DNA from: an uncultured Lentisphaerales bacterium
GTDB taxonomy: Bacteria > Verrucomicrobiota > Kiritimatiellia > RFP12 > UBA3636
NCBI GenBank assembly: GCA_964553035.1
Contig: CAZKJH010000003.1
Coordinates: forward strand, 767 to 64,766
Direction: 5' to 3'
DNA length: 64,000 nt
Part shown: positions 25,543 through 55,195 of the stretch, piece by piece
Position numbering within the stretch: the stretch's first letter is position 1
Layout: each line of letters opens with the position of its first letter
Notes under the pieces: model-generated
Databases searched by the model: none
The model's input: only the letters and a program-made list of their open reading frames with translations
What the model was told of the DNA's origin: nothing
Made by a program: the position numbers and the translations under genes

Positions 25543-26910
25543 CTGTTACCTGCGGTTCAGAGGCGCAAAAACCCCAAGCATGCAAGTTCTCTGGTGAAAA
25601 CCGCCATGTTTGGCACTTTCTTAGGAGCAGGCCCGTACTCGTAGACCTGCCTCGCCTATAATGCAGGTGAAACAAGCAACGGAGTTTTACATATCCGCTG
25701 CAGATAGTCAACTCTAAAATTAGATTTTAACGAAAAATCCCGCCTAGTACATTGTACAGGCAGAAATGACGGTAATTTTCAGGTAGAGTACATGATTAAC
25801 AATATTGAAACCAAGAACTTAATCTTGTAAATCTTGTAATCTTGTCTTACCAATACGCGCTGTACAGAGTACTAGATCGCCAGCACCTCGCACAGGACCC
25901 CAAAAAATACGTTGCGAGCTTTCGTGGGAACCTCGGCCCGGCAAGTAGTATCGCAGCAACGCTGACAGAAATGCCAGTCACGGCTAAAAAGGCTTGCTTT
26001 TAACCGATATGGTAAGTATAATTATTTCCCATTAAAACAAAACCATCACTCAAAGCCAGACGCCGCAAGGCGATGGAGAGTCTCGGCGCCCTCGGCAATC
26101 TGCTGGAGGGCAGCCTCTGCCGCGCTGACCGCGGCGAGGCCGTCCGCTACCAGCTCACCGACAAGGTTGTGGGCCGAAGCCGCACGCTCTACGTCCCTGC
26201 GGACATGGCCGAGGAGGTACGGCAATGGACGCAAAACTGGAAGCAGGCAAAGCGATTACTCAAGGAGCTCTCGGCACTTTCAAGAGAAGAGGTCCGCGCG
26301 GGCACCCAGGGCGCCCTCCCACGCGGAACCCCGAAGGCTCCGTAGTGTGCCGACGCGCTTCTAAAGATGATCCTGGGTCGCTCCGCCTTCATCAACGAGG
26401 CCTTCGAGAATCTTGAGGATAGACGTAGCGCCTCGCGCATCCTCTACAGCGCTACGACTTTGTGCTGGACGCCGACGCTGGGATTCCTGAACCGGTGCGA
26501 CTCGCGCAACGCCATGGACTCAGACCGCAACGACGTCCCCCTACGCGCGCACGGTGATGGCTTTGAGCGGACAGGACTGGTGGCCGGAAGGGGAGGTGCT
26601 GACCACGGCATAGACGCCAAGCGGATCGCGTGCTCCAGCCCGAGCCATCCGATTCACCGGAGCCGTCGCAGACCGCGACGCTCGGCACCGCTCGGTCATA
26701 AGGCGGCGGTGCTGCGGTTATTCTTCTGTCCTAGGTGGAAAGTCGGCGGGACAGGGTCGCGAGGAGAGATGATTTGGAATCCATGTGGCATCAACTTGTC
26801 GCTTGCCCTTTTTTTTCTATTTGCTATACTTTTTTAATAGAAGTAGGGTTGCTCTGTATTAAAATGGAGCGAGCCTAGGGATGCCGTTGACATTTATAAC
26901 GGAGGAGATT

Positions 26911-37322: not shown

Positions 37323-38390
37323 ATGAAAATAATAGTCGGTCTCAGTGGCGGCGTCGATTCCTCGGTCGCAGCGCTACTTCTCAAGAACGAGGGACATGAG
37401 GTCACAGGTGTGACCATGAAAATCTGGCGTTCTGGCAAATATGCCGGCGGCGACAGGGATGCTTGTTTTGGTTCTGGCGAGGACGAGGATGTTGCCGTCG
37501 CAGAGGCACTTTGCGCCCGCATCGGCATTCCCTACCGCACCTTTGACTGTTCCAGTCAATATGACGATCTGATCGTCTCGCACTTCCGCAATGAATACAT
37601 GGCTGGCCGCACCCCGAATCCGTGTGTGCGCTGCAACGCCATGATGAAATTTGGTCTTCTTCCTGAGCTGGCTAAGGCCGAAGGGATCGCCTTCGATCGC
37701 TTCGCAACGGGCCATTATGCCCGCACGGATATTGTCGACGGACACTCCCGCTTGCTCCGGGCTGTCGATTCTTTCAAGGATCAGTCATACTTCCTTTATC
37801 GACTTTCGCAGGAGCAACTGGCGCGCCATCTCTTCCCGTTAGGTAGTCTCTCAAAGAACGAGGTGAGGCAAATAGCGCGAGAAAATCAGCTTGATGCCGC
37901 CGAGAAGCCAGACAGCCAAGACTTCTATAGTGGCGACCGCGATGAACTGATCGGCGAGCCAGATCGTTCAGGAAACATTGTCGATGAAACCGGCAAAATC
38001 CTCGGACATCATACCGGATTCTGGAAATACACCATCGGCCAGCGCAAAGGGCTCTGCATTGCTCATCCGTTACCCCTCTATGTCGTCGAGCTCAACGCCT
38101 GCACGAACGAAGTGGTCGTCGGCACCGTTGAACGCACACTCGGTCATTCGCTCGTTGCTGACTCCTGCAACTGGACTTCGATTCCTGCGCCGGAGACGAC
38201 AATGGATGTCCAGATCAAAGTCCGTTCCGCAGGGAAGCCGCTTGAAGGCGCAACCGTGCGCCCGCTTGGCGAAGGACGCTATGAAGCGCGCTTCGCCACT
38301 GGCATTGCTGGCGTTGCGCCCGGACAATCCGCCGTCTTCTTCCAGGGCGATGTCGTCCTCGGCGGCGGCATTATCAGGAGCGCCGAATGA
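37323..38390 (+). CDS. mnmA: tRNA-specific 2-thiouridylase MnmA (start at internal MKIIVGLSGG)
   Basis: PP-loop SGGVDSSVAA. Catalytic cysteines CVRCN. The track ORF has a 44-codon spurious extension. Confidence 0.9.
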   Translation: MKIIVGLSGGVDSSVAALLLKNEGHEVTGVTMKIWRSGKYAGGDRDACFGSGEDEDVAVAEALCARIGIPYRTFDCSSQYDDLIVSHFRNEYMAGRTPNPCVRCNAMMKFGLLPELAKAEGIAFDRFATGHYARTDIVDGHSRLLRAVDSFKDQSYFLYRLSQEQLARHLFPLGSLSKNEVRQIARENQLDAAEKPDSQDFYSGDRDELIGEPDRSGNIVDETGKILGHHTGFWKYTIGQRKGLCIAHPLPLYVVELNACTNEVVVGTVERTLGHSLVADSCNWTSIPAPETTMDVQIKVRSAGKPLEGATVRPLGEGRYEARFATGIAGVAPGQSAVFFQGDVVLGGGIIRSAE

Positions 38391-39502
38391 TCCCGCTAGA
38401 AACCATTCTCGAACGAGCAAAAGCCAATCCCCACGCCTTGTCGCGCGATGAACTTGCGCTTCTGCTCTCACTGACCGCCCCCGCCGATCTGCAGAAACTG
38501 CATGATGCGGCTTACGAGGTCAAATGCCGCTACGCAGGTAAAATCGTCAGCTTCCGCGGAATCATCGAGATGGGCAATGTCTGCTCGAAAGACTGTTTCT
38601 ACTGCGGCATCCGTAAAGGCAACGCCAAGGTCGAACGCTTCCAGCTCGACGAGGCCACGATCTTGCGCGGCATCAAACGCACCCTCGACATGGAATACGG
38701 CTCGCTGGTACTCCAGTCCGGCGAACTCGAATCCGAAGCGCATACCGCCTTCATCGAAAATATCCTGCACCGCATCTCGGAAATGTCGGACGGCAAACTC
38801 GGCGTTACCCTTTCCCTTGGAGAACAGTCGGACGAAACCTTCTGGCGCTGGCGTGCCGCTGGTGCGCATCGCTACCTGCTCCGCATCGAATCGTCGAATC
38901 CGGAAATCTACGCCAGACTTCATCCCGCCGACCACAGCTTTGAACGTCGCGTGGATTGCCTGCGTCTGCTACGCAAACACGACTACCAGGTCGGCAGTGG
39001 CGTCATGAGCGGTCTTCCCGGACAGACCAGCGACGATCTGGCCAACGACATTGTGTTCTTCCGCGAAATGGATCTCGACATGATCGGCATGGGCCCGTAC
39101 ATACCGCATCACGACACACCGCTCGGACAGGACATCCCCTTCACGCCGGAGTATGCAGCCGACCATCTGCGCCTCGGCCTCAACATGATCTCGGCCACCC
39201 GTCTCTTCCTGCACGATGTCAACATCGCCGCCACCACGGCGCTGCAGGCACTCGCCGATGATGGTCGCGAACAAGGCATTCTTGCCGGGGCCAACATCGT
39301 GATGCCCAACGTCACCGACACCGAATACCGTCGCAACTACCAGCTCTACGAGAACAAGCCCTGCCTCGACGAAAACTCAGAGCAATGCCGCTACTGCCTT
39401 GCCCGCCGACTCGAAAAAATCGGCGAAACCGTCAACTGGAACCACCGCGGCGATTCGCCTCACTACGCCGCCCGGCACGAGAATGACGAACGGAGGAAAT
39501 AG
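38387..39502 (+). CDS. hydE: [FeFe]-hydrogenase maturase HydE-type radical SAM protein
   Basis: CSKDCFYCGIRKGN radical-SAM cluster motif. Block SLGEQSDETFWRWRAAGAHRYLLRIESSNPEIYARLHPADHSFERR is colinear with HydE (BioB/HydE family). MVGLPGQT-like GLPGQTSDDL. Confidence 0.75.
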   Translation: MIPLETILERAKANPHALSRDELALLLSLTAPADLQKLHDAAYEVKCRYAGKIVSFRGIIEMGNVCSKDCFYCGIRKGNAKVERFQLDEATILRGIKRTLDMEYGSLVLQSGELESEAHTAFIENILHRISEMSDGKLGVTLSLGEQSDETFWRWRAAGAHRYLLRIESSNPEIYARLHPADHSFERRVDCLRLLRKHDYQVGSGVMSGLPGQTSDDLANDIVFFREMDLDMIGMGPYIPHHDTPLGQDIPFTPEYAADHLRLGLNMISATRLFLHDVNIAATTALQALADDGREQGILAGANIVMPNVTDTEYRRNYQLYENKPCLDENSEQCRYCLARRLEKIGETVNWNHRGDSPHYAARHENDERRK

Positions 39503-39886
39503 TTTTTGGAATTGGGTTTTTGACAAGATTGCAATACCCACTCCACTAAGCTTCTTGTTCTTCTCGCCCTTCCGGTTAAAAACCCTTCGCCACTCACCTC
39601 AGCCTCCTCTGCACATTAAACAATTCGTATAATCCGTGTTTAATCCGTGAATCACGATGCACGCCCCTCGCTTTAGCTGCTCTAAAATACCACCCGAAAA
39701 GCCAAGCTACGTTTAAACCGAAAGTATTACTTTACATTTAGACGTCCTAAGCGCCAAAAAACTCACGTCATCCGGAATTAAAATTGAACTTTAATTTTGC
39801 ATAATTTCATTTATATCATTGGATGTAAGTACTTTACCATGTAATACTTTTTATAAATAGCGTTTATTTTCACTAACTTTTATGCA

Positions 39887-39909
39887 AAATTAAAATTGAA
39901 TTTTAATTT
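39887..39909. promoter_or_regulatory. Perfect 23-bp AT-rich palindrome AAATTAAAATTGAATTTTAATTT, ~50 bp upstream of the ATPase gene (putative operator)
   Basis: 11-bp arms around a central G. A related copy ATTAAAATTGAACTTTAATTTT sits at ~39777-39800. Confidence 0.4.
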
Positions 39910-39955
39910 CGCGTATTTTATGGTATGATATTTTCACTTCACAAGGAGACCGTCA

Positions 39956-41140
39956 ATGATCTATCGAAATATTACTCCTCATCTGGAAAAACTCGCTACC
40001 TTGTTCCCAGTTGTTACGATCCTCGGGCCTCGGCAGTCGGGAAAGACAACGCTGGCGCGTATGACATTCAAAAACTATTCATACGCCAACCTCGAATTGC
40101 CGCCGGTGCGGCAGCTTGCACGCGAAGACCCACAAACTTTTTTTGTTAACTTTCCGGCCCCCTTGATCATCGATGAAGTCCAACATGCCCCTGAGTTGCT
40201 GAGCTATATTCAGGTTTTCGTTGACGAGCACAAAGCGCGTGGGCAATACATTTTGACGGGATCACATCAGCCACTCCTTCAGGCAAAAGTCACCCAGTCG
40301 CTGGCAGGACGTACCGCCTTGCTGACACTGCTCCCACTCTCTTTGCCCGAACTTGCCAATGCTGGATTTTCAATGGACAGGGACGAGTGGCTATTTAAAG
40401 GATTCATGCCCAGGATTTATGATGAGTCAATTCCGCCGACATTGCTCTATGAGAACTACTACCGGACCTACGTCGAACGAGACGTCCGGCAACTCATCAA
40501 CGTGAAAGATCAAAATGCTTTTGAAACGTTCGTACGCTTTCTCGCAGGGCGTGTGGGGCAGGTGGTCAATCTCGAAAGCATGTCCAACGACATCGGCGTC
40601 TCGTCCCCCACCTTGGCCGCATGGCTTTCCGTGCTCGAAGCGAGTTATATCGTTTTCAAGCTCCATCCCTATTACAACAATTTCGGGAAACGACTGATCA
40701 AATCCCCAAAAATCTACTTCACGGATGTGGGTCTGGCGTCGTACCTGCTTCGAATTGAAAATCGTGATCAAATCGCTCGGGATCCGCTTATCGGAGGCCT
40801 TTTCGAGAATCTTGTCGTACTCGAGGCACTCAAGGCACGTTACAATGCAGGGCTTTCTCCTGATTTATATTACTTCAGGGATAGCAGTGGACTTGAGATC
40901 AACTTGATTCTGGATCAGGCACGCCAACTACACGCCTTCGAAATCAAATCGTCCAGGACGTGGAACTCAGCATTCGGAAAGAATATGGGGAAATTCCGTG
41001 AAAGAATTTCCAGCCTTCTTTCATCCACAGTTATCTATTCAGGTGAGCCCATAGCTGGCAGCGAAAGCCGCCCCTCATGCGTCCACTTCACTAACACAGC
41101 AAGCCTGTTTGTCAAGACGCCAGAAAGCGTTGGGCCTTAG
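39956..41140 (+). CDS. AAA+ superfamily ATPase of the COG1373 / AAA_14 + DUF4143 type
   Basis: Walker A GPRQSGKTT, Walker B LIIDEVQ, C-terminal KIYFTDVGL. AAGGAG SD. Sits in a low-GC island. Confidence 0.8.
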   Translation: MIYRNITPHLEKLATLFPVVTILGPRQSGKTTLARMTFKNYSYANLELPPVRQLAREDPQTFFVNFPAPLIIDEVQHAPELLSYIQVFVDEHKARGQYILTGSHQPLLQAKVTQSLAGRTALLTLLPLSLPELANAGFSMDRDEWLFKGFMPRIYDESIPPTLLYENYYRTYVERDVRQLINVKDQNAFETFVRFLAGRVGQVVNLESMSNDIGVSSPTLAAWLSVLEASYIVFKLHPYYNNFGKRLIKSPKIYFTDVGLASYLLRIENRDQIARDPLIGGLFENLVVLEALKARYNAGLSPDLYYFRDSSGLEINLILDQARQLHAFEIKSSRTWNSAFGKNMGKFRERISSLLSSTVIYSGEPIAGSESRPSCVHFTNTASLFVKTPESVGP

Positions 41141-41163
41141 ATAAGATTATAGCAGCGCCATTC

Positions 41164-41404
41164 CCTGTGGCAAAGTGGACACCCTGCCACAGGCATCTCC
41201 GCATCCGCACCACACGCCGAGCGGCTGGGTGGCAGCCTCATCTCGTATTGTAATCTCGACATTTAGTTCAAGATTACGGTGGCGTAATTGCCTGTGGCAA
41301 AGTGGACACCCTGCCACAGGCATCTCCGCATCCGCACCACACGCCGAGCGGCTGGGTGGCAGCCTCATCTCGTATTGTAATCTCGACATTTAGTTCAAGA
41401 TTAT
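41164..41404. repeat. Tandem duplication, 2 x ~127 bp (114 bp identical per unit), each unit with a 9-bp-stem hairpin CCTGTGGCA...TGCCACAGG and a GGCTG...CAGCC hairpin
   Basis: Direct sequence identity between 41164-41277 and 41291-41404. This explains the duplicated peptides in minus-strand ORFs 41147-41389 and 41274-41618. Confidence 0.85.
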
Positions 41405-41425
41405 AATGACGAGATTGCTTGTGTC

Positions 41426-41942
41426 CATAATCGGTCAGCCATCGGGGGGATGGGTGAAAGTATTTTGCGGGGGTGACGCCTGAGATCTGCTCTGCTGTGC
41501 TATCAACCCAGTTGTCGCAATAAGCGCGGTGCGGTTTTAAACACAGAGAGTTGGAGACACAGAGATTGAGCCACTGGGAGCGATATGCTTCCAGCCTGTG
41601 CAAACGACAAACAGGCAAGATGCCTGTTCTCCCAGTAGGGCAACATTTTTCTGTCCACCCATTTTTCTGTCCCTCTCTACACTAAAACAAGGGGCATATC
41701 TCTAGAAATCCCCGATACCGATTTTTCGTTTTGGATCCCGATACCGATACCGATTTCGATTACAGACGCGGAGGTCTGCATCGCTCCAGTTTTCTAGTAA
41801 AACAAGAGACAGGCGTCTAGAAATTGCGGCCAATCAGGAGATTGGCTCTCCTATTCCCATCCCTCTGTGCCTCAAACTCTCTGTGTTTAAAACCCAAACC
41901 CCATTACCCACATACTTGCCCCCGGTCACTGACCGATTACGA
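41426..41942. repeat. Non-coding element with nested inverted repeats (MITE-like or structured-RNA candidate)
   Basis: Outer IR TAATCGGTCAG...CGGGGG at 41426-41450 pairs with 41916-41942. Inner perfect 20-bp IR GGTTTTAAACACAGAGAGTT at 41533-41552 pairs with 41878-41897. Internal short repeats TCTAGAAAT x2, ATTTTTCTGTCC x2, CCGATACCGAT x2. Confidence 0.7.
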
Positions 41943-41989
41943 GTTTCATCTGAAAAACACTTGTCTTCTCGAGAACGAATGGTTATGCT

Positions 41990-43135
41990 TTGGATCACCT
42001 CTATATGATGGAGGCTGATACAAAGGACGGCTATGACGAAGGGAGATTATTGATGAATCGACGCGCTATTATTGGTGATCTTGTGTTGCCAGACCGCATC
42101 CTGCGAGGTGGAGCGGTCGTTATTGCAGACGGCGTTATCGAATACGCAGGCCCGGCGGACAGCGTTGCGTTGCCCGACAACCAGATTCGAACGGGCGGGC
42201 GGCTCGTGGCACCGGGCTTTGTTGACATTCATTGTCATGCGGGAGCTGGAGTTATGTCGCACGATGATCCCGCTGCCGTGGCAGCGTATCACCGCCGCCA
42301 CGGAACGACGGGATTGCTGCTTTCGTTTTATCGTAATCTCTCAAATGACCAAGTGCTGGAAGGGTTACGGAAAATCGCGGCATGTCAGGCACCGAATGTG
42401 TTGGGCGTTCACATGGAGGGGCCATACCTTAACCCGGAATACGGAGCCAGAAAGCAGCCATTTTCGTCTGTTGATCCGGTTTTTTATCGTCAGGTCATCA
42501 ATTCCGGGCTTGTTCGTCAATGGACTTATGCTCCGGAAATGCCTGGCACTTCTGCCTTTGCACGCGAAATTGCGGCGGCAGGCATCGTGCCTGCAATCGG
42601 CCATAGTGCGGCTTCGCCTGCCGAAGTGGATCAGGCGGTCTGTGACGGTGCCCGCATCGTTACACATTTGATGAACGCCACGGGTTGCAGTATATCACCA
42701 ACGCGCTACGGTGGAACGATCGAGGTCTCGTTTGATCTCGCGGCGATGCGCCATGACAAGATGTTCTTCGAGGTTATCTTCGACCGTGAGGGTATACACG
42801 TCCGGCGCGAGATGATCGAATTCATTCTGAAGACGGCTGGGGTAGATTTTGTGGTGGGTATTACGGATTGTGCGGCGGGTGGACTAGATGTCGATGACGG
42901 CCGGGATGTGATCGGCGAGGGTCGCGCATTGTCCGGTACCCGATTGACAATGAGCGGTGTGGCACGCAACTTCCTTTCGCTTGGTATGCCGCTTCAAGAT
43001 GTCTTTAAGATTGTCGCGCTCAATCCCGCGCGTGCGATTGGAATGGATGATCGTGTTGGGAGTCTGGCGCAAGGTCGGCGCGCTGACCTCCTGTTGATTG
43101 ATGCCGAATTAAATAAAGTAGAGGTGGTTACCTGA
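41990..43135 (+). CDS. nagA: N-acetylglucosamine-6-phosphate deacetylase-like amidohydrolase
   Basis: GFVDIHCHAG metal-binding motif, GVHMEGPYLNPE, and IGHSAASPAEVDQAVCDGARIVTHLMNA match NagA blocks. True start may be the internal Met at ~42053. Confidence 0.7.
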   Translation: MDHLYMMEADTKDGYDEGRLLMNRRAIIGDLVLPDRILRGGAVVIADGVIEYAGPADSVALPDNQIRTGGRLVAPGFVDIHCHAGAGVMSHDDPAAVAAYHRRHGTTGLLLSFYRNLSNDQVLEGLRKIAACQAPNVLGVHMEGPYLNPEYGARKQPFSSVDPVFYRQVINSGLVRQWTYAPEMPGTSAFAREIAAAGIVPAIGHSAASPAEVDQAVCDGARIVTHLMNATGCSISPTRYGGTIEVSFDLAAMRHDKMFFEVIFDREGIHVRREMIEFILKTAGVDFVVGITDCAAGGLDVDDGRDVIGEGRALSGTRLTMSGVARNFLSLGMPLQDVFKIVALNPARAIGMDDRVGSLAQGRRADLLLIDAELNKVEVVT

Positions 43136-43165
43136 ACGTAGTGCGCAGTCGCTTCTGTCAGAGAC

Positions 43166-46003
43166 TCACTTGTCAAACACCAGCCATGCCATCCGTTCCT
43201 CTCCTGAATCGATCGGTGGCGGTAGTAGGGTCTGCGACTCATAGCCGCCCAGCAGATCCGCGACACGTGTGACACCGAACCTAAGTGCCCTGCACGTCTT
43301 GCGTTCAATTCCGAGCGAAGCAAAAGGCAGCCGCAGGGTCACCGCCCAGTAGTCCGGTCCTTGCGTGGCTTGAGCAGTCCAGCGATGATTCTTCGGTGAC
43401 CCCAGAGTACTGAGGCGCTCTTCTCCTCCAACAGGATTGACATCGTTCATGGCACGCCCCGCGTAGAACTCGCGGGCGCCAAGCGAATTGACCATGAATC
43501 CACGGCTTTCCTCGAACTGGCTGGGGTACACGACGAAATGCACTTGATCATCGGGCCCAAGATCGTTTGGATCAAGCGGGTCGGCTCGCACAAGCTCCAT
43601 ACGCGGCTCGCGGCACATAATCCCGACGTAGAGCCCTGCGTCGTCATAGCCGGCACGCCAGGTCGTAACCCGTCCGGTTTTCATTTTATCCGGAGCGACA
43701 TGCAGAGGCGGAGCTTCCGGTAGCGAATCCCACTCGCCCCCTGCGGGAGATCCATTGATCTTGGGTGCTTGAGTAACCCTCTGACACCGGTACACGTAGC
43801 CACCCGGTGCTTCGCCGATATAGGCGGGAAAGAGCGGACAGCCTGGCTTCAGCCGCCGGGCAACGCGTGGGAATTCCTTTGCCAACAGTGTCTTCAATTC
43901 ACGCATGCGCCAGCGAATCAGCTCCGGGAAGTACTTGAAGGCTCCAGCCTCCGGGCAATAGCCGAGGCGCGGATTCCGTTCGACCAGCGGCAGCAGCAGC
44001 CGGTCTACTTCGATCTCGCGCCTCACAAGCGTCCTCATGGTGTCCAGCAACGTGCGACGCTTGTTGCCGCAACTGTGGGCCAGTCGTTCACGCAGGGCAT
44101 AGAATGTCAGAATGTTGACGCCGCTTTCGAAGTGCAGTTCCAGTACCCGGGCCAGATCGATCTGTCGCTGACGCTCTCGATTCCCGATGGCGGTCGGATG
44201 CAAGGCTTCCAGCAGGCGCACACCACGCCCCCAGCGATCGCGCATGCGAGTGCACAACGTGATGATTTCGCTGAGCGTGTGATAGCCCGTGCAATTTCCG
44301 ATGATGTCGCCACCCGGCGAATCCGGACGCCAGTTGCCGCCCAATTTTAAGCCACGGGGCTCAAGGTAGAGCGGCCATACCGGGCCGTTGTGCATAGGGC
44401 CAAAATAGCTGAACCCGATGGACACCGGATAGTGGGCGTAGGCGGCACTGAAATGCTTCCAGGCGCGCACAACCGTTGGAGCGTGGATCCCCCAGTCGCG
44501 GCGTGCCTGGCGATCAAGAAAGGCCGCTTCTGTATCCGGAAGAGGCGCGAAGGCAAGGTCGCCTGCGGCTCGGTTCATCAACGACGGATCGTTGCCGGAG
44601 CCCCAGTTCTGTAAAGCACCGCTAACGCCCAGCGCATGCATACCCTGAAACCGCTGGTAGAGGTTTCTAGGCACCGGGATGTAGGGGACGCTGGCCAGTT
44701 CATGCGAACAGCCAGCCATGATCTTGGCGTAAACCGTCGTACCTTTTGCTCGGGCCGCTTGCGCACAGTCGCGGAACAGGGTACTCGGTCCCGGAACGGA
44801 CAACCAATAATCGTCCGCGCGCCGAATCTTTCCCAACTGGCGAACCTTCGCCGCGCTATCGTAGTTGTGCAGGAGGACGACCTTCGGAGGGACATGCGCC
44901 GCAGCATCGCGAGTCAGGCGCTCTCCCCAGCAAACGTATTGCGAGTAAGGCCAAGCGATGAACTCCGCTTCAGGATCGGCGGTGTGAACGCCGCGTTCCA
45001 TCGCCGCCAACGTATCGCGCAGCACGTCCCGTGGAGCACGCTTCGAACAGCGGGGGCAGCGGCTCGGACGGACTCTCGCCTCATAAGACCCCGAGTAGCA
45101 GTGCGTGGACCGTTCGCCGACGCAGATGACGATCAGTCCGCCCAGACCTGGTGCTCCGGCCATGAGCTTCCGGAATCCTTCGGCAAGGGCATCGCAGCCC
45201 TGCTTCGTGCTGGTGCAGTAGTAGGTTATCCCGTGCGCATCGCCGCCCAGCAGATGCGGATGTTTCGCACGCAATGGGCTGCCCGCCGAAAATGATTTCG
45301 GCTCATTGAGGTAAAGATAAAGCCGGATGCCATAGCGTGCGTAACGCCGCACGCGCTCCCGGAGTGCCTCAAACAGAGATTCTGGTGGTGCCTCGAACTC
45401 CGGCACGATACGATGAGGATAGAGCAACTCCATCGGCAACATCACGCCGTTGACACCTTCGTGCGCCAGTCGGTTCAGGAACTCATCCGGAAGAATATCG
45501 AGCCCGATGTGGTCGAACATGCCTACGTGGAATTCGATCCGGCGACGGATAACCGCCGTACGCGTGATGACTTGCACGGGCAGAAACGGGCCACCACGCC
45601 GCAGCATTTCGTCTTCCAGATAAACTAGCGCACGGCGAAACCCTTCTGTGCTGCCGCTCAACACGACGCAGTCTGTCCGGCCGATTTCGATTCGGTAGGA
45701 TTCATCGCATGATTCGCCGGTACACCTGAACCGCAGCCGATAGTCTCCGGTTTCCGGGATACCCGCCGCATGCAGGAAACGCTTGAAGTCCTGAAAGGCG
45801 GTTTCCAGTAGCCCGTCCGGATCGGACGGCCCTCCATCCACCGTAACGCCGCTGGTCAGCGACACCTCGTCGACTCGCGGCTGTGTGCGTTCCCACTGAA
45901 TCGGCTCGCCATGCAAGGGCTCGGTCAGCTCGTGCAGAAAAGTAGTGTCCAGTGGCTGGTCAGGGATAGGGTAAAAATAGCGGGAGTGGATTGGTTTAGT
46001 CAT
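43166..46003 (-). CDS. Hypothetical 945-aa cytoplasmic protein; TIM-barrel-like hydrolase region plus C-terminal carbohydrate-binding (CBM9-like) domain
   Basis: No signal peptide. Cys-cluster CVGERSTHCYSGSYEARVRPSRCPRCS. Head of the co-directional glycan locus. Confidence 0.45.
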   Translation of the reverse strand: MTKPIHSRYFYPIPDQPLDTTFLHELTEPLHGEPIQWERTQPRVDEVSLTSGVTVDGGPSDPDGLLETAFQDFKRFLHAAGIPETGDYRLRFRCTGESCDESYRIEIGRTDCVVLSGSTEGFRRALVYLEDEMLRRGGPFLPVQVITRTAVIRRRIEFHVGMFDHIGLDILPDEFLNRLAHEGVNGVMLPMELLYPHRIVPEFEAPPESLFEALRERVRRYARYGIRLYLYLNEPKSFSAGSPLRAKHPHLLGGDAHGITYYCTSTKQGCDALAEGFRKLMAGAPGLGGLIVICVGERSTHCYSGSYEARVRPSRCPRCSKRAPRDVLRDTLAAMERGVHTADPEAEFIAWPYSQYVCWGERLTRDAAAHVPPKVVLLHNYDSAAKVRQLGKIRRADDYWLSVPGPSTLFRDCAQAARAKGTTVYAKIMAGCSHELASVPYIPVPRNLYQRFQGMHALGVSGALQNWGSGNDPSLMNRAAGDLAFAPLPDTEAAFLDRQARRDWGIHAPTVVRAWKHFSAAYAHYPVSIGFSYFGPMHNGPVWPLYLEPRGLKLGGNWRPDSPGGDIIGNCTGYHTLSEIITLCTRMRDRWGRGVRLLEALHPTAIGNRERQRQIDLARVLELHFESGVNILTFYALRERLAHSCGNKRRTLLDTMRTLVRREIEVDRLLLPLVERNPRLGYCPEAGAFKYFPELIRWRMRELKTLLAKEFPRVARRLKPGCPLFPAYIGEAPGGYVYRCQRVTQAPKINGSPAGGEWDSLPEAPPLHVAPDKMKTGRVTTWRAGYDDAGLYVGIMCREPRMELVRADPLDPNDLGPDDQVHFVVYPSQFEESRGFMVNSLGAREFYAGRAMNDVNPVGGEERLSTLGSPKNHRWTAQATQGPDYWAVTLRLPFASLGIERKTCRALRFGVTRVADLLGGYESQTLLPPPIDSGEERMAWLVFDK

Positions 46004-48367: not shown

Positions 48368-49771
48368 CTAGTCTTCGGGATTGCTCTGCGCGGCGTTGCC
48401 GATGCTACCTGTGGGACCCAGCAGGGAACTTGCCGCCTGCAAGCCAGCGTTCGTGGACGCGCTGGCTTGGGTGTCCGCGCCCAATTGTTTGCGAATTGTC
48501 GAGGCCATCTGGGCGACGAGTCGTTCAACGTATTCCGAGCTGTTTTCCGCCGCTGGGAAAGGGTCGTTGATCGGAATGTTGTTCTCTTTCATCACTCTGG
48601 AAGCGGCGGCAGTTAGCTCCTTGACCTCCATTGGGCGATTCCCCTCGTGCCATGGAACAGAGCCCGCCCAGATGATCTTTGCCCCTTTTCCTTCATCGCG
48701 AATCAGCTTGACGACCTCGCGTAGACCTGTTTCCCATCCAGAGATGTCCGGCAAAATGGTTTTCCAAATAGGATCGGTTTCGTTGCAGTGTAGCCCGTTG
48801 TTGAACAAGATGATGTCGTAGGAGTATTCATCAAAAATATAGTTCAGATTTTTGACATACAAGGGGTCGGCGAAGCTTCTGCTGGTGCTGTAGGTGGATA
48901 AGTAGGCCGTCCCGGTCAGCGCCTTGTTGACGGAACGCTGGTAATCGTCATAAATGGAATCTCCTATCACCAGCACACGCGGGAGTTCGCTCTTTTCGCC
49001 ATCATACCAGAAGATTCTGGTCCACTCTACTTTTTCCGTGCTTTTATCGTCGCCTGAAACGGCAGGCTGGGCTTGGGAAGCTGGGTCTGTCGATAGCGGA
49101 CTGGAGGCTTTTTTCACGTCAAGATTCGCGCGAATCACGGCGGCCACTTGTTTGGCCGCAAGCTTCCGTCCTTCGACGGAGTGGTGTAAATTATCCGTCC
49201 AGTACTGCTTACGGTCAAGAGGATCCATCAAGGCAAAAAGGTCGTTGATCGGGATGTTGTTTTCTTTCATCACCCCGGCCGCGATAGCATTGAATTCTTT
49301 CACCAGTCTTGTATTGTCCTCAAAAGCTGCCGGAGTAATAGAAGCCCAAATGATGACTGCCCCTTTTTCTTCTTCACGAATCAGTTTTATAACCTCCTTC
49401 AGGGTTGTTTCCCACGCCTTGAAATCGCTGCCGAAGCTGTGCAATCCGTTGTTGAGCTGGATCAGCGCATAGTCGTTTTCAGAAAGCATCAGTTTGAGCT
49501 CTTTAAGGTAAGAGCGGTCAGTCATGCATTTGGCCGTTGTATACGTGCTGACGTAAGCCATTCCGGAAAGCTCTGCGCTGACATACTCCTGATACATGTT
49601 GGCGATGGAATCTCCAATCAGCAGGACGCGAGGGAGATTAGTAGCTCCGGGTTTATGGCAAACCGTGTAGATCCATTCAATGCTTTCGCGTTTGCGTTCC
49701 GCATACAAGGTTGTTGCTATCATGCTGAAACACGAGAACAGAAGAACTCTTTTTAAAGTACGTATTCTCAT
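48368..49771 (-). CDS. Secreted tandem SGNH/GDSL-type hydrolase (two esterase domains; carbohydrate O-acetylesterase-like)
   Basis: Signal peptide. Two GDS blocks VLLIGDSIANMY and VLVIGDSIYDDY, each followed by an NNGLH motif. Confidence 0.7.
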   Translation of the reverse strand: MRIRTLKRVLLFSCFSMIATTLYAERKRESIEWIYTVCHKPGATNLPRVLLIGDSIANMYQEYVSAELSGMAYVSTYTTAKCMTDRSYLKELKLMLSENDYALIQLNNGLHSFGSDFKAWETTLKEVIKLIREEEKGAVIIWASITPAAFEDNTRLVKEFNAIAAGVMKENNIPINDLFALMDPLDRKQYWTDNLHHSVEGRKLAAKQVAAVIRANLDVKKASSPLSTDPASQAQPAVSGDDKSTEKVEWTRIFWYDGEKSELPRVLVIGDSIYDDYQRSVNKALTGTAYLSTYSTSRSFADPLYVKNLNYIFDEYSYDIILFNNGLHCNETDPIWKTILPDISGWETGLREVVKLIRDEGKGAKIIWAGSVPWHEGNRPMEVKELTAAASRVMKENNIPINDPFPAAENSSEYVERLVAQMASTIRKQLGADTQASASTNAGLQAASSLLGPTGSIGNAAQSNPED

Positions 49772-49835
49772 TTTAACCTCCTTTCTTTATAAGATGCCGT
49801 AATTCTTGAGACAGACTTTTAAATTCCAGCTCATC

Positions 49836-51347
49836 TCAGAGGATGCCATCCCACGTGTTAACTTTCTTTTGTTTTATTTCTGCGTCATCGAACCACCGCG
49901 TCGTGACGGCTTTTGTTTCCGTGAAGAACCGGATCCCGTCTTTGCCTAGTGCGTGCAAGTCTCCGAAAAAGGAATCCTTATGGCCGGTGAACGGGAATAT
50001 CCCAGCTGGAACCGGGATTCCAACGTTGATCCCTACCATGCCTCCATGTACGCGTCTTGCAAACTCACGGCTGAAGTACCCATTCTGGGTGAATATCACC
50101 GCGCCGTTAGCAAATTTATTATTATTAATGACTTGCAAACCTTCTTCAAAGTCGCTCACCCGTTTGACACACAATACGGGGCCGAATATTTCTTCATTGC
50201 CAATGGTCATCTTGGGAGTCACATGGTCAAAGATTGTCGGTTTAAGATAAAAGCCATTTTCAAACCCTTTGACACTGACCGTTCTCCCATCCAGAGCAAG
50301 TGTTGCGCCTTCCAGGATCCCTTTTTCGATCCAGTCCAGCACCGACTTCCGGTGGCTTTCCGTAACCAGTGGGCCGAGTTCTGATTTTTTGTCGTATGCA
50401 GGGCCCACTTTGAGCTCCCCTGCGAATTTCTTAAGCAGTTCGACAAGCTGATCTGCGATACTTGACTGGACGACGACAGCCGGTAAAGCCATGCATCGTT
50501 CACCAGCGCATCCGAACGCGGCATTGATAAGCCCGCGCGCCGTGCGTTCGAGGGGAGCGTCTTCCAGTACCAGGGCATGGTTCTTGGCCTCGCACAATGC
50601 CTGTACTCGTTTGCCGTTTGCGGCCGCTGTCGCGTAGATATGCATGCCGACTGCTGTTGAGCCGACAAACGTTATCCCCTTTACATCAGGATGTTTCAGG
50701 AACAGTTCGGCCTCATTGCGGCTACAGGTGACGAGGTTTACCACACCTTCAGGCAAACCCGCTTCCTGCAACAGTTCCGCGCACCGCATCGCGGTCATCG
50801 GGGTTGTACTGGAGGCCTTCAGCACCAGCGTATTGCCGGAGGCAATGCACAGCGGCATCATCCAGCCAAAAGGAATCATAGCAGGGAAGTTGAACGGCGC
50901 AATCCCTGCGAATACACCTACCGCTTCTTTATAAAGCACGGTATCAAAACCTGCGGTGACATTCATCAAGGATTCGCCCATCAACAAGGAAGGAATACCA
51001 CAGGCAAATTCAATCGCCTCCTTGGCCTTGAGGATATCCCCCTTTGCTTCATCCCATACTTTGCCGTTTTCGCGGCACACGATGGTTATAAGTTCGTCCA
51101 GATGATTCTCAATCAATTCTCTGAATCTGAACAAAACCTGTACCCTTTTTATGGCTGGGGTTTCTGACCAGCTTGGGAAAGCGGCTGCAGCAGATTCTAT
51201 GGCCGAGTTGACTTCTTCCTCGGTACAACAAGGCGTCCTGGCTATGATATCCCCCGTATTCGGATCGTAGATGTCCATATACTTGGTGGTTTTCGAGTCA
51301 TGCCATTTGCCTCCTGAAAGATATTTCAGGTATTTTACTTCACTCAT
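49836..51347 (-). CDS. mmsA: CoA-acylating methylmalonate/malonate-semialdehyde dehydrogenase (start at MSEVKY)
   Basis: Colinear with IolA/MmsA (PFNFPAMIPFGW, GERCMA catalytic Cys, KVGP, FTGHKDSFFGDLHALGKDG). No catalytic Glu typical of non-acylating ALDHs was confirmed by eye. Confidence 0.8.
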   Translation of the reverse strand: MSEVKYLKYLSGGKWHDSKTTKYMDIYDPNTGDIIARTPCCTEEEVNSAIESAAAAFPSWSETPAIKRVQVLFRFRELIENHLDELITIVCRENGKVWDEAKGDILKAKEAIEFACGIPSLLMGESLMNVTAGFDTVLYKEAVGVFAGIAPFNFPAMIPFGWMMPLCIASGNTLVLKASSTTPMTAMRCAELLQEAGLPEGVVNLVTCSRNEAELFLKHPDVKGITFVGSTAVGMHIYATAAANGKRVQALCEAKNHALVLEDAPLERTARGLINAAFGCAGERCMALPAVVVQSSIADQLVELLKKFAGELKVGPAYDKKSELGPLVTESHRKSVLDWIEKGILEGATLALDGRTVSVKGFENGFYLKPTIFDHVTPKMTIGNEEIFGPVLCVKRVSDFEEGLQVINNNKFANGAVIFTQNGYFSREFARRVHGGMVGINVGIPVPAGIFPFTGHKDSFFGDLHALGKDGIRFFTETKAVTTRWFDDAEIKQKKVNTWDGIL

Positions 51348-51369
51348 GTCAGTCTCCTTTTCATTTTGA

Positions 51370-52257
51370 TTAAGGGTAAATGGGCGTTCCTTCTTTCTTG
51401 ACTTTTTCAAGGAAGGTTTTTGTTAACTGAGCCGTTATAGGGCCGGGAGTTCCGCTTCCTATCTGCCTTCCATCAACCCAGACGATGGGCACCACTTCAA
51501 TGCGGGTCGCGGTGCAAAAACATTCATCACTGGTATACAAGTCGTGCAGGGTTAACGGTTCTTCTACCGATTCCAGCCCTGCCGCTTTGGCGATCCGCAA
51601 GATCGTCCGTCTCGTGACACCATCCAGAATTCCTAACCAAAGTGGCGGGGTTATGACCCGTGAGCCTTTGACAATAAATAAGTTGTCTCCCGTCAACTCA
51701 CATACAAAGCCTTGTTCGTTTAAAAAAATGGCATCTTGTACATTGACGGCGTTGGCCTGCAATTTGGCTAGGATGTTGTTCAAATAATTGGTCGACTTTA
51801 TCCGTGGACTCAGAACATCCGGCCCATTGCGTCGGCATGAGGTGGAGATGACCTTAATTCCTTTTGTGCTGGAAGCGTTATTGCCTGTATCTTCAGGGTG
51901 GCGGGTTTCGGCATCCACAATGATGACCACAGTCGCAGTCGGACAACTTTTTGGATCAAGCCCCAGAGCCCCCTTACCGCGGCTTGCCACTGGCCGGATG
52001 TAAGCATCTCGCAAGTTATTACGCCTGACGGTCTCAAGGATCGCCACTTTCATCTCGTCACGACTGAGAGGTAGTTTAAGTTGGATCGACTGTGCGGATT
52101 CATAAAAACGATCAACATGCTCATCCAGTGCAAAGATTCGTCCATTATAGGCTTTGATGCCTTCAAAAACCCCATCGCCATAGAGAAAGCCATGGTCAAA
52201 TACGGACACGGTGGCTTCATTCTCGCCCACGAAACGGCCATTTACATATACGATCAT
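51370..52257 (-). CDS. ilvE: Class IV aminotransferase (branched-chain amino acid aminotransferase-like)
   Basis: SVFDHGFLYGDGVFEGIKAY and AYIRPVASRG (BCAT YIRP motif). Colinear with IlvE. Confidence 0.8.
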   Translation of the reverse strand: MIVYVNGRFVGENEATVSVFDHGFLYGDGVFEGIKAYNGRIFALDEHVDRFYESAQSIQLKLPLSRDEMKVAILETVRRNNLRDAYIRPVASRGKGALGLDPKSCPTATVVIIVDAETRHPEDTGNNASSTKGIKVISTSCRRNGPDVLSPRIKSTNYLNNILAKLQANAVNVQDAIFLNEQGFVCELTGDNLFIVKGSRVITPPLWLGILDGVTRRTILRIAKAAGLESVEEPLTLHDLYTSDECFCTATRIEVVPIVWVDGRQIGSGTPGPITAQLTKTFLEKVKKEGTPIYP

Positions 52258-52266
52258 AAAAACTCC

Positions 52267-53988
52267 TTAATAGGACGGTTCGAAATCTGGTTTATACTTT
52301 TCATCTGTTATAACATCAATTAATACAGGTTTGTCGGCCTTCAAGGCTGTCTGAAAGGCACTTTTGAGCTGTTTCGGATCGTCAACTCGAATTCCAAGGC
52401 AGCCGAATTCCTCTGCGATTTTAGCAAAATCTACGTTGCTGAACTGAAAGAGATCACCCTTCTTCCCGGGATAATTACCATACGCCTTTTCCACGCCGAC
52501 AGAACATTGGCTCATGCAAGAATTATTGTTCAACACGGTTATTGTTTTTATACCATTTCGGGCAGCGGTCTCCAGTTCGCAGAGGTGGTAAAAAAATCCA
52601 CCATCTCCTGTGAAACAGAATACCGGTCTGTCAGGCGCTGCGCATTTTGCACCTAAAGAAGCAGGAAATGCCCAACCCAAGGATCCGGCTGCCCGAATAT
52701 ACGTTTGCCCGGAGTAATTTAAATCAACCATTGAGCAGGTCCAAATACTAGCATATCCAGTATCCGCAACCAATATTGCGTTCGGTGGAAGACTCTCTGT
52801 AATCTCCTGACATAACCTCTCCGGTCGTATAGGCGACGCATCCGAAGTCCGAAGGGGTGCCACTTCACGCCGCCATTCCGCAACGACTCCAGCCACATAT
52901 TTCGCCCACTGGGTTTTCTTCTGCTTGGGGCGAATCGATTCCAATAGTTTATTAACCGTTAACAGGGCATCTCCCATGACGCCCTTCATGATGGGAAAGT
53001 TCCTTCCCAGCTCGGATGGATTGATGTCTATCTGTATGATGAGCGTACCCTTTTTCGGTAATTTCCAGTTGTCCGTAACCATGTCTCCGGTATTAGAGCC
53101 GATGAAGAGAACGAGATCGGCTTCTGACACAACTTTGTTAGCTGTTGCCCGGGAATAGGAGCCAACAACCCCCACGCTCAGGGGATGATTGTCTGGGATC
53201 GTTCCTCTGCCGCTCATGGAAGTGGCAACGGGGATGGATAAAAGTTCGGCCATTCTTACTACTGAAGGCCCCGCCGAGGATGCGATCACGCCACCACCCG
53301 CCACAATGACCGGTTTTTTTGCTGCTTCCAACGCGCGGGCCACGACGAGAATTTCTTGGGTGTCCGGGGCAACGCGATGCGCTGGATATTGAGCATAATT
53401 CTCCTCAACGACGACGTCCGAGTTAATTTGAAAACTCTCAGCGATCTGTCCGAGATGCCCTGGAACATCTACATGGACTGGCCCGATTGCTCCGGACGTT
53501 GCCTCGCGAAAAGCTTGACGCAATAAGTAGGGAAGTTGTTCCGCCACATCCACACATACATTGTATTTGGTTACCGCGTCAAAAACGGATTGGTGCGAAA
53601 TCTCTTGATAAGCATTTCGATATTGAGAAAGAGATCTCTTCTTTCCTGTTATGGCAATCACCGATGAATGCCCGAGGAAGGGATCCTGAAGGCCTGATGC
53701 CAAATTGGCCGCCCCCACGGATTGAGCCATACAGATGCCGGGCCTGTGGCTGACACGGGCATAACCATCCGCCATATAGGCGGCCGCCTTTTCAGAGTGA
53801 GCCAATATACGGCGAATACCCAGCTTCTCCATTTCAACCAACGCATGCCTGAGAATAGCTTCAACAAAGAAAACATGCGTGACTCCGTAACTCTGAAATG
53901 TTTGAGCGATGAATGTTGAGCCGGACTGTATGCCGGAAGAACTGGAATCAACGATTTTCTTTGTCTCTTGTTTTTTTTGAATAGCCAT
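52267..53988 (-). CDS. Thiamine-diphosphate-dependent enzyme of the acetolactate synthase / pyruvate oxidase family
   Basis: N-terminal ThDP-pyrimidine domain GVTHVFFVEAIL. Central domain. C-terminal ThDP-binding GDGGF motif (CFTGDGGFFYH). 573 aa. Confidence 0.75.
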   Translation of the reverse strand: MAIQKKQETKKIVDSSSSGIQSGSTFIAQTFQSYGVTHVFFVEAILRHALVEMEKLGIRRILAHSEKAAAYMADGYARVSHRPGICMAQSVGAANLASGLQDPFLGHSSVIAITGKKRSLSQYRNAYQEISHQSVFDAVTKYNVCVDVAEQLPYLLRQAFREATSGAIGPVHVDVPGHLGQIAESFQINSDVVVEENYAQYPAHRVAPDTQEILVVARALEAAKKPVIVAGGGVIASSAGPSVVRMAELLSIPVATSMSGRGTIPDNHPLSVGVVGSYSRATANKVVSEADLVLFIGSNTGDMVTDNWKLPKKGTLIIQIDINPSELGRNFPIMKGVMGDALLTVNKLLESIRPKQKKTQWAKYVAGVVAEWRREVAPLRTSDASPIRPERLCQEITESLPPNAILVADTGYASIWTCSMVDLNYSGQTYIRAAGSLGWAFPASLGAKCAAPDRPVFCFTGDGGFFYHLCELETAARNGIKTITVLNNNSCMSQCSVGVEKAYGNYPGKKGDLFQFSNVDFAKIAEEFGCLGIRVDDPKQLKSAFQTALKADKPVLIDVITDEKYKPDFEPSY

Positions 53989-54058
53989 TTAATCCTGCTC
54001 CTTAAAAGTTAGTAGCTTGTTTTCCAACTTCAATGTTGGACGTTCGATGTTCCGTGTT

Positions 54059-55123
54059 TTAAATAAAGCAAAGGAATCGCGCCGGGTTCTCAACCATGAT
54101 AGTCTTGATCTGCTCTTCCGTGATGCCTCGAGCCAACATTTGCGGCACGATGTTGCTCAAGATATGTGCGTAACCTTGGCCGCCATAACATACAAGTTTT
54201 GACTTCAAGCAGGTGTCCTGTGAAACGAGGATCTGTTTTAAATATCCTGTGTCGATCAGTTCAATAATTTGCTCAATTCGTTCTCTGTCGCATGGCCTGT
54301 TAAACACGCCAAAACGCAGAGGGTAGAACGGGTTGCCGCCAAAAATATCATATTCAACATAGCAACCTGTTTTTGCTATTTCCTGTATTGTGGCCGGCAA
54401 AAAACCTGTTCGATCCATGTGTCCCATGATGACACGACCGATGTCCGCCCCGGCGTCATCGAGAAACCCGATAATGTCGATAGGCGAATTCGCGTGGCGA
54501 CCGGGATGAATGGTAATGGGTGCCCCTGTTTTCTGCTGCGCCCGTGCAGACGCACGAAGCAACTTCTTCTCCGAGTCCTGCAAAGGCCAGGAGCATCCGA
54601 TTTCGCCGATAATGCCCGCCCGGATTTTGGTATGACTGTCACCAACGAGGATTTCTGCAATGATTTCTTCGGCAATCTCGTCTACCGTTTTTTTGTCAAA
54701 TTCCTGCCTTGCTTCTCCGGCCAGAACGTAATAACCTGCTCCGGCAATGATATTGAGGCCTGTTGCTTGAGATATTCGTTTTAATGCTGGAAAGTTAGGG
54801 GATAGACCGGCGGTGGTCACGTCTACAATCGTACCCCCGCCCACATTCTTGAAAAACATCGCCTCCTTGATCGCGACATCTTCATCCAGCAAGCGCACGT
54901 TGTCTAAATTGCTGTACTGGTTGTAGTTAATCCAACTGATATTGTCGATGCTAACCGGTTCGAATGCCCTTTTTTTTAACTCAGCCTCTTGGGGTTCGGA
55001 AAATAATATCTTCGCGTCAACGAGAAGATGTTCATGGGGCAACGTTATTCCAAGCTCATCGGGATGAACTAAGCCCAAAACAGTTTGCGCCTTTTTAATG
55101 GGTTCTTTTGTTGTAGCAGACAT
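54059..55123 (-). CDS. Phosphotriesterase-family (PTE/PHP-like) metal-dependent hydrolase, likely lactonase
   Basis: TLPHEHLLVD His-His metal motif at N-terminus. TIM-barrel amidohydrolase length of 354 aa. Confidence 0.7.
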   Translation of the reverse strand: MSATTKEPIKKAQTVLGLVHPDELGITLPHEHLLVDAKILFSEPQEAELKKRAFEPVSIDNISWINYNQYSNLDNVRLLDEDVAIKEAMFFKNVGGGTIVDVTTAGLSPNFPALKRISQATGLNIIAGAGYYVLAGEARQEFDKKTVDEIAEEIIAEILVGDSHTKIRAGIIGEIGCSWPLQDSEKKLLRASARAQQKTGAPITIHPGRHANSPIDIIGFLDDAGADIGRVIMGHMDRTGFLPATIQEIAKTGCYVEYDIFGGNPFYPLRFGVFNRPCDRERIEQIIELIDTGYLKQILVSQDTCLKSKLVCYGGQGYAHILSNIVPQMLARGITEEQIKTIMVENPARFLCFI

Positions 55124-55195
55124 ATTTCTTCTTTCCTGTCGTGTGGCGTATTATGTGACTCTGAATTCGGCTTTTAGCACATTTCCACTAATAAT

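Follow-up and report, generated by a model that had tools for sequence, protein, structure and literature searches.

Between hydE and a glycan-utilization locus in a 64,000-nucleotide stretch of DNA from an uncultured Lentisphaerales bacterium (hereafter the window) lies a segment that holds an AAA+ ATPase gene, an AT-rich leader upstream of it and a tail of structured repeats downstream. Its left boundary is hydE itself, which encodes the [FeFe]-hydrogenase maturase (38387..39502, plus strand; TIGR03956, 332.7 bits against a cutoff of 254.6) and is the final gene of the left conserved block, rarA-feoAB-mnmA-hydE, in the synteny table. The sole credible gene between hydE and the next locus occupies 39956-41140 on the plus strand and codes for a protein of 394 amino acids (aa). 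An earlier note, made from the letters of the window alone, had read this gene as a lone DUF4143-type AAA+ ATPase between hydE and the glycan locus, and the recovery of the Pfam domains AAA_14 and DUF4143 in its product, along with the TIGR03956 match of HydE, bears this out. The same note had described an AT-rich leader of about 450 bp, free of open reading frames (ORFs) and with a perfect 23-bp palindrome; this too is found as described, with the leader spanning 39503-39955 (453 bp, 36.0% G+C), no ORF of at least 50 aa being contained entirely within 39503-39955, and the palindrome lying at 39887-39909.

On the right, the next coding sequence is that of a NagA-like amidohydrolase at 42053-43135 on the plus strand, whose product matches TIGR00221 with 139.5 bits, under the cutoff of 225.65. 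Its start is placed at the ATG at 42053 instead of the TTG at 41990, because the homologues are all 358 aa in length, and the non-coding tail downstream of the ATPase gene therefore measures about 910 bp. Thus, the structured repeats proposed for this tail are present, as tandem units and nested inverted repeats, but its length of about 850 bp has had to be revised. The right conserved block starts at 42002 (42002..43135, plus strand), from where the DNA is 87.9% identical to that of locus L109 (related loci are cited by such numbers), in which mutS precedes.

The segment as a whole had been taken for a low-GC island. This holds mostly for the leader, whose G+C content is the lowest 500-nt value of the window (mean 53.7%, standard deviation (sd) 4.1), and less for the gene, which has a G+C content of 49.8%, and of 55.7% at third codon positions (GC3), and hence lies about 1 sd under the window mean, resembling the genes at 48-58 kb. 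Likewise, the tetranucleotide deviation of the ATPase gene alone amounts to a z of 0.9, and reaches about 2.2 only if the non-coding flanks are included. The compositional break is mainly that of the leader.

The ATPase and its nuclease-fold domain

Sequence profile searches with the ATPase recovered AAA_14 (PF13173, E 5e-25) and DUF4143 (PF13635, E 1e-46), the latter over model positions 1-160 of 160, as well as full-length matches to PDC-S01 of PADLOC (PDLC04790 with E 5e-92, and six further PDC-S01 models). There was no match in PHROGs or NCBIfam, and a sequence search of the PDB returned only P-loop noise. On these profile matches the gene appears to be an ordinary member of the very large PDC-S01 (COG1373) family, and thus a candidate anti-phage ATPase-nuclease. 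DUF4143 has been catalogued as a PD-(D/E)xK family (PMC3424549), and PDC-S01 has been reported as the 4th most common defense candidate in prokaryotes, with validation pending (PMC12988326), and as the most frequent single locus in a rumen survey (PMC13356809). The window ATPase is akin to PDC-S01 in possessing the same two Pfam domains, a full-length profile match and the organization of a single-gene module amid defense genes, but differs from it in an Asn in place of a near-invariant Asp at position 316.

Members of the family are present on 134 plasmids and on only four uncultured phage fragments, and a protein-based metagenome scan for the ATPase yielded three loci only. Homologues occur amid defense and toxin-antitoxin genes in L044 (a DNA methylase and a truncated GmrSD), L083 (BrnA) and L098 (AbiEii). 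Many others are found on very short contigs. In this regard, two Logan contigs from the strain of the window itself (L001 and L002) both break at window position 41193, inside the hairpin of the first tandem repeat unit downstream of the gene; the tandem units evidently halt short-read assembly, which may explain the many homologues on contigs of 1.3-1.8 kb.

An AlphaFold2 model of the ATPase, built from an alignment of 31 homologues (mean pLDDT 89.8), displays three parts, namely an AAA+ core, a winged helix at about residues 186-256, comprising three helices and a β-hairpin, and a nuclease-fold domain at 279-377 with the order α-β-β-β-α-β. The Walker A (G24-T32, GPRQSGKTT) and Walker B (D73-E74) motifs are invariant in the 31 homologues, as are E284, E314, E329 and K331, and position 316 is Asp in 29 of the 31. 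The latter position lies in strand β2, in the sequence E-I-D-L, and is the predicted metal-binding Asp of the PD-(D/E)xK set (E...D...ExK). In the window copy this set is incomplete: E284, E329 and K331 are kept, with Asn at position 316 (D316N, codon 40901-40903). Among close relatives the substitution is confined to the window copy, the four closest (L003, L084, L086 and L083) all having Asp. It bears on activity and not on homology, and the window copy may hence not cut.

Foldseek searches of the PDB with the model recovered the archaeal AAA+ ATPases 2qen and 2fna, STAND (signal transduction ATPases with numerous domains) proteins such as Avs4 and RPP1, Orc1/Cdc6, and the CARF nucleases VC1899 and Cdn1, all with low identity. 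With the STAND/Avs and Orc1/Cdc6 AAA+ proteins (2qen, 2fna, 8dgf and 2qby) the ATPase core and winged helix superpose with Foldseek probability 1.0 and E of 2e-6 to 5e-5, and the fusion of a nuclease effector to an NTPase switch, as modelled for the window ATPase, follows an Avs-like logic. However, the TM-scores are only 0.25-0.45 and the identities 12-16%, there is no TPR or LRR sensor, and the window ATPase is far smaller at 394 aa. By analogy with these nearest folds, the protein probably functions as an NTP-dependent switch, in which the winged helix would bind nucleic acid and the C-terminal nuclease would cut.

The leader and its palindrome

The perfect palindrome at 39887-39909, AAATTAAAATTgAATTTTAATTT, has an 11-1-11 arrangement and is the core of a slightly longer operator-like palindrome (39883..39913), with its core motif at -63 from the ATG of the ATPase gene. 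In order to compare this region, the 200 nt before the start codon were examined in 15 loci with ATPases 54-100% identical to that of the window. The core motif, AA[AG]TTN[AG][AG][CT]TT, was found at -55 to -76 in 13 of the 15, mostly at -63 to -69, against a background frequency of 4.6e-5 per nt in 1.39 Mb of sequence; by chance, about 0.003 occurrences would be expected per locus. Among the closer homologues the symmetry reaches further, to GGCGRAATTAAARTT-N-RAYTTTAATTYCGCC. The two arms of the L089 palindrome are altered together (AACCAAAGTT / GACTTGGGTT), and symmetric changes are likewise seen upstream of the second of two tandem ATPase paralogues in L091 (L091b). Thus, of the proposal that the non-coding parts of the segment are functional partners of the ATPase, the part concerning the palindrome gains support from its fixed position across homologues of 54-97% identity, but the part concerning the downstream repeats is not supported (see below).

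Between the palindrome and the gene an extended -10 box, TGGTATGAT, can be read from the sequence at 39921..39929 (plus strand), followed by a ribosome-binding site (AAGGAG) at 39943-39948. L003 (TGATATAAT), L106, L097 and L089 have comparable TGn-extended -10-like boxes in the corresponding position, and in most homologues read the box lies 9-14 nt past the palindrome. A generic promoter scan did not call the box at 39921-39929, and no -35 element is present. By its placement the palindrome appears to cover the -35 region, and it would not be transcribed from the extended -10 promoter. It would be centered about 35 nt before the expected transcription start, which is predicted about 7 nt past 39929, and it accompanies the gene through many lineages.

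Members of the clade share the recognition helix of the winged helix, and the first, divergent L091 paralogue (L091a) has another recognition helix and another palindrome. Since the module consists of a single gene, its product has a winged helix, and helix and palindrome differ together in L091a, the most economical reading we infer is that the palindrome is an operator for the winged helix of the ATPase itself, mediating autoregulation, probably repression. Such an operator, if true, would show how the expression of a potentially toxic ATPase-nuclease is restrained.

The locus in question, L091:1590-4230 (JGI 3300044950), encodes two tandem DUF4143 ATPase paralogues, each with its own, different palindrome upstream; that of the first, TTGCATTTTCGGATA-tag-TATCCGAAAATACAA, overlaps its -10 and that of the second is of the AAAGTTgAACTT type. 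A palindrome of another kind is present at L083:8375-8945, where a perfect 30-nt palindrome (CAGAATCACATATTC/GAATATGTGATTCTG) directly follows an 89% identical paralogue of the window ATPase and is succeeded by two small minus-strand genes, one with a weak match to the BrnA antitoxin (21.5 bits, under the gathering cutoff of 26.1).

Farther upstream in the leader, an imperfect copy of the palindrome, GGAATTAAAATTGAACTTTAATTTTGC, is located at 39773..39804. The 112-nt segment to which it belongs (39776-39887) is shared by the window, L084 and L085 and is missing from L003. The two boxes and the 75-nt AT-rich stretch that they flank, ahead of an ORC-like ATPase, had suggested an arrangement like that of Orc1/Cdc6 and its origin. 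This candidate was dropped, as L003 and the majority of homologues possess only one box and the gene is stable in chromosomes. The distal leader (39538..39772, plus strand) is 93.6% identical to that of L003, has no ORF and shows no folding signal on either strand (RNA fold z of -0.02 and -0.16).

The site after hydE in related genomes

The alignments of the window to L003, L004, L005 and L044 end at 39477-39481, and synteny with the relatives stops at the 3' end of hydE. In L003, from a sister metagenome-assembled genome (MAG) whose MnmA and HydE are 94% and 87% identical as proteins, the same ATPase follows hydE. A second closely related MAG (JBBQIY) encodes an 89% identical homologue (P0002) at another locus, and in its hydE flank (L044, JBBQIY010000009.1, 660-3500) it has a 202-aa ORF, an N6/N4 DNA methylase, an ATPase remnant, a truncated GmrSD and an S palindrome, a repeat considered below. 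The remnant consists of 160 nt of the 3' end of the ATPase gene plus its downstream DNA. The 202-aa ORF beside the methylase has no Pfam match; together the two probably constitute a restriction-modification system. Thus, the position after hydE is occupied by the ATPase or its remnant in each of the three closest genomes. In relatives with 82-83% hydE identity it is occupied by other, unrelated genes, and L004, L005 and L006 are without the ATPase.

The DNA of the ATPase gene is 96.7% identical to that of L003, as against 88.2% for mnmA and 83.6% for hydE; the leader has 93-94%. This similarity is unevenly distributed, at 99.5%, 88% and 94% along the gene. In the first half, 597 of 600 nt are the same, synonymous sites included. 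From 40556 to 40755 the window is 88% identical to L003 and 98.5% to a third allele, L084, and at 40956-41055 L003 and L084 agree with each other and the window differs. These patterns are those expected of recombination between alleles rather than slow drift. One might instead suppose plain vertical inheritance, with the ATPase always having resided after hydE and its similarity to L003 being due to selection. The presence of the gene or its remnant after hydE in all three closest genomes and a GC3 of 55.7% inside the range of the window are in keeping with this. However, selection on the protein fits poorly with 597 of 600 identical nt beside a 200-nt block at 88%, with flanking genes at only 84-88% and a non-coding leader also at 93-94%, and the more distant relatives L004, L005 and L006 are without the gene; we consider this possibility highly improbable.

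The earlier note had gone further in proposing a horizontally acquired module with repeats as its borders. Exchange is indeed indicated by the excess of identity in the ATPase gene (96.7% versus 88% and 84%), the mosaic alleles and the other locus in a sister MAG, but a discrete, recently inserted island is not supported: no integrase, transposase or recombinase was found among the large ORFs scanned, the tRNA scan found none near the segment (the nearest being more than 13 kb away), and the repeat border on the left is a half-site only. Nor does the suggested comparison with an empty site between hydE and the NagA-like gene yield one. In the L003 MAG the NagA gene is preceded by mutS (L109), the two genes are not adjacent in any relative, and the closest three genomes have, or had, the ATPase. 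From the L003 copy, the L044 remnant and the JBBQIY homologue elsewhere, the ATPase would therefore have been present after hydE since the genus-level ancestor. The comparison thus points to a variable defense spot at least as old as the genus-level clade and not to a fresh island. One sister MAG would have kept the ATPase at this spot, and in another it would have been mostly overwritten by the methylase gene and the adjacent ORF, with ATPase alleles being reshuffled between lineages by homologous recombination. The locus might accordingly illustrate both the turnover of defense genes at a fixed position after hydE, with replacement of the ATPase by a methylase-containing, probably restriction-modification, module, and the shuffling of alleles among related uncultured lineages.

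The downstream repeats and the alternatives that they raise

The tail begins with tandem units (41143..41423, plus strand), consisting of U1 (41143-41269) and U2 (41270-41396), of 127 nt each and identical at 113 of the 127 positions, and 27 nt of a partial U3. Within the units, 9-bp hairpins lie at 41164-41193 and 41291-41320, and each unit ends with the S palindrome. The first S copy (S1, 41245..41282) is a 15-8-15 inverted repeat, GTATTGTAATCTCGA / CATTTAGT / TCAAGATTACGGTGG, and the second (S2) lies at 41372-41409. S is formed by each unit junction, GTATTGTAATCTCGA-CATTTAGT-TCAAGATTAC, with arms complementary at 14 of 15 positions and an asymmetric 8-nt spacer. The right arm of S also occurs alone in the leader, as the half-site ACAAGATTGCAATAC at 39523..39537 (plus strand), which is the left end of the sequence common to L084 and L085. 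When the units are aligned with those of L084, L086 and L083, their ends prove to be conserved and their center variable. The 12-mer AGATTRCAATAC is found exactly at 39526-39537 (plus strand), 41245-41256 (minus) and 41372-41383 (minus), with four matches against 0.42 expected. Elsewhere, S copies are present at L083:6714 and L083:6872, at L044:3439-3478 in the variable region and at L109:2942-2975 between the PFOR and TauE genes, in addition to the two of the window.

The units are followed by an element (41428..41939) resembling a miniature inverted-repeat transposable element (MITE), with 21-nt P2 arms at 41428-41449 and 41919-41939 and an inner 32-nt inverted repeat at 41533-41564 / 41863-41894. 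A second, partial copy in the opposite orientation lies between sulfatase and DeoR genes (L112:6649-6883) and matches window positions 41424-41602 and 41843-41918. P2 was found in L003, L109:4034, L112:13330, L112:6869, L086 and the window; in L003 both P2 arms adjoin as a bare hairpin. No target duplication is visible at 41428/41939 or 41533/41894, and no transposase was identified for these repeats in a search confined to the large ORFs of the window. The tail had no BLAST match in plasmids, and Rfam had none at E<1 in window positions 38000-44000 or in L003, L083, L084 and L086. Beside the ATPases of other lineages the S, U and P2 repeats are absent.

In their short, near-identical hairpins with 15-21-bp arms, recurring in several intergenic regions, S and P2 resemble the repetitive extragenic palindromic (REP) sequences and their paired REPIN forms, and the 512-nt P2-bounded element with its second copy elsewhere in opposite orientation resembles a MITE. 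Unlike these, they have no REP-associated tyrosine transposase (RAYT) or other transposase among the large ORFs of the window and no visible target duplication, and the U units are confined to a local tandem array beside ATPase genes. Given that S, P2 and the long element recur in unrelated intergenic regions, are absent beside the homologues of other lineages and have no Rfam match, the idea that the downstream repeats are a partner of the ATPase is set aside; they appear rather to be lineage-wide REP/MITE-like repeats and not dedicated partners. In 41194-42001 homology to the left block (L003) has already ended and that to the right block (L109) has yet to begin, and the repeat complex therefore marks a rearrangement junction. 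The tail of about 910 bp is thus probably a pile-up of lineage-specific palindromic repeats where two otherwise unlinked gene blocks join, the repeats being by-products, and perhaps agents, of rearrangement. Two further stretches are of note. At 25820-25845, in the AT-rich spacer between tRNA-Thr (25467-25542) and the next ORF at 27009, TAATCTTG occurs three times; on the other strand this is CAAGATTA, again three times, an 8-mer of the inner part of the S arms. Window positions 41608-41636, within the MITE-like element, are identical over 29 nt to L083:2019-2047 (GGCAAGATGCCTGTTCTCCCAGT.., with an 8-bp hairpin), which is intergenic between the convergent genes for a penicillin-binding protein and a Mur ligase in the sister MAG and may be another short dispersed repeat.

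The folding of the tandem units raises the possibility that they encode an RNA partner of the ATPase, which could be a repeat RNA of the antitoxin kind or else a regulator acting as antisense or as 3'-untranslated region. Over 290 nt the tandem region has a folding z of -6.0, the window, L084 and L086 share the unit hairpin GTGGCRAAGTGRRCACC..GCCAC, and minus-strand promoter-like sites matching at 11 of 12 positions are present at 41173-41146 and 41427-41400, reading toward the 3' end of the ATPase gene. However, the low folding energy is due to the palindromic unit ends; only these ends are conserved, with a variable center, and the minus-strand -10 lacks conservation in both U2 and L084. Moreover, L003 keeps the gene with just 52 nt of degraded unit, the L083 unit is upstream and not downstream, homologues in other lineages have none, and Rfam returned nothing even at the permissive threshold. 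An RNA partner in the units is hence unlikely, and we would give this proposal very little credence. The minus-strand sites themselves, which arise from the starts of U1 and U3, are sigma-70-like (TTGCCA-16-TATAAT with TG, and TGGACA-16-TATAAT); transcription from the first (41146-41173) would run antisense into the 3' end of the ATPase gene.

The same palindromes might instead be seen as the ends of a selfish element similar to an insertion sequence (IS), with the ATPase as its enzyme rather than a defense protein and the 127-nt units as miniature derivatives. Under such a scheme, terminal inverted repeats of 12-15 bp, AGATTGCAATAC (39526) and GTATTGTAATCT (41245), bound one ORF with a promoter beside the left repeat, a layout resembling an IS, and the 12-mer is exact three times in the right orientations, with its excess over expectation noted above. 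The family is also multi-copy, as in the tandem paralogues of L091, and the very short contigs that carry many homologues would be in keeping with this. Nevertheless, the protein has AAA+, winged-helix and PD-(D/E)xK domains only, and lacks any domain of the DDE, HUH or recombinase type; a clear target duplication is missing; and homologues outside this lineage are not surrounded by the repeats. L003 lacks both repeats with a near-identical gene, the same repeat ends occur without the gene in L109 and L044, and the context of another homologue (P0084) is constant across eight samples. An IS-like origin thus appears very unlikely. A candidate target duplication at the 12-nt inverted repeats (GACA on both sides, with a one-base offset) was judged compatible with chance.

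A third scheme has the palindromes as sites of recombination. Leader, ATPase gene and U unit could form a site-specifically mobile defense cassette with S palindromes as borders and a recombinase encoded elsewhere. A circle of about 1.6 kb would be excised and reinserted at S, whose 15-8-15 structure would act like loxP/FRT or dif, and U2 and the units without a gene would be empty cassettes. Two Logan contigs of 1.6 kb from independent samples, L084 and L085, have both ends inside S, and in them the leader adjoins a complete S, exactly at the point where only the right half-site is present in the window. The 14/15 complementary arms with an 8-nt asymmetric spacer suit such a site, AAGATT is common to the start of the leader and the starts of the units, such that an empty unit equals a loaded one minus leader and gene, and the 89% paralogue at its other location also has S/U units nearby. 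On the other hand, two S copies per chromosome, breaking the assembly graph at k=31, explain the overlapping contig ends equally well; the short contigs of other homologues (L106-L108 and L096) have no terminal overlap, and the exact junction motif GTAATCTYGACATTNNGTTCAAGATTA has no match in JGI metagenomes or IMG/VR. The scan of large ORFs disclosed no recombinase, S-like hairpins also occur between housekeeping genes (L109) in the manner of a REP family, L003 keeps the same gene without either S site, and the units of L083 are upstream only, 300-460 nt away, with none downstream.

The imperfect palindromic element of about 127 nt that comes after the gene is reminiscent of integron attC sites and of the dif modules of Acinetobacter plasmids, as are the empty unit beside the loaded one and the L084 unit bounded by directly repeated palindromes. 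In contrast to integrons, there is no IntI among the large ORFs scanned, the attC R''/R' cores (RYYYAAC / GTTRRRY) are absent, the unit ends AAGATTAC and GTAATCT, as read from the sequence, are unlike these cores, and a window cassette would carry its own promoter region of 430 nt. In contrast to dif, S has a spacer of 8 nt and arms unlike XerC/D sites. Visual inspection of the unit ends for attC cores and Xer/dif-like arms revealed neither. We therefore hold the cassette scheme to be unlikely; if true, PDC-S01 genes in a lineage of the Kiritimatiellia/Lentisphaerota would possess a small system comparable to integrons or dif modules.

Thus, the segment is probably best explained by a combination of a PDC-S01 module, a palindrome acting as its operator, an old variable spot after hydE and a REP/MITE-like tail. 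Several observations weigh against parts of this account. For PDC-S01, phage defense is a candidate role only, and the window copy with D316N may be a nuclease-dead or attenuated allele. The core motif is missing from L098, whose ATPase is 60% identical, and another host factor could bind the palindrome. With respect to the tail, full S palindromes are enriched near ATPase genes and may have some linkage to them: in about 132 kb of lineage sequence, five of the six copies, from three of the four loci, are no more than about 1 kb away from an ATPase gene or remnant, and the hairpin of the U body is found beside ATPases only. The relatives are all fragmentary MAGs, such that the repeat copies were counted in fragments; the ends of L084 and L085 inside S belong here as well. 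While a specialist is unlikely to be surprised by any of these findings, PDC-S01 is among the most abundant reported candidate defense genes, and the conserved palindrome would give one clade of it a testable operator.

The glycan-utilization neighborhood to the right of the segment encodes two large minus-strand proteins, of 945 aa (43166-46003) and 992 aa (55196-58174), which have no Pfam or NCBIfam match. The latter belongs to a run of six minus-strand genes at 48368-58174, with G+C contents of 47.6-50.9%, whose other products are an SGNH/GDSL hydrolase, an aldehyde dehydrogenase, a class IV aminotransferase, a thiamine pyrophosphate (TPP) enzyme and a phosphotriesterase-family protein. The top tetranucleotide deviation of the window (z 2.0-2.4) is located at 55-58 kb, and this block is both larger and compositionally more deviant than the ATPase gene.

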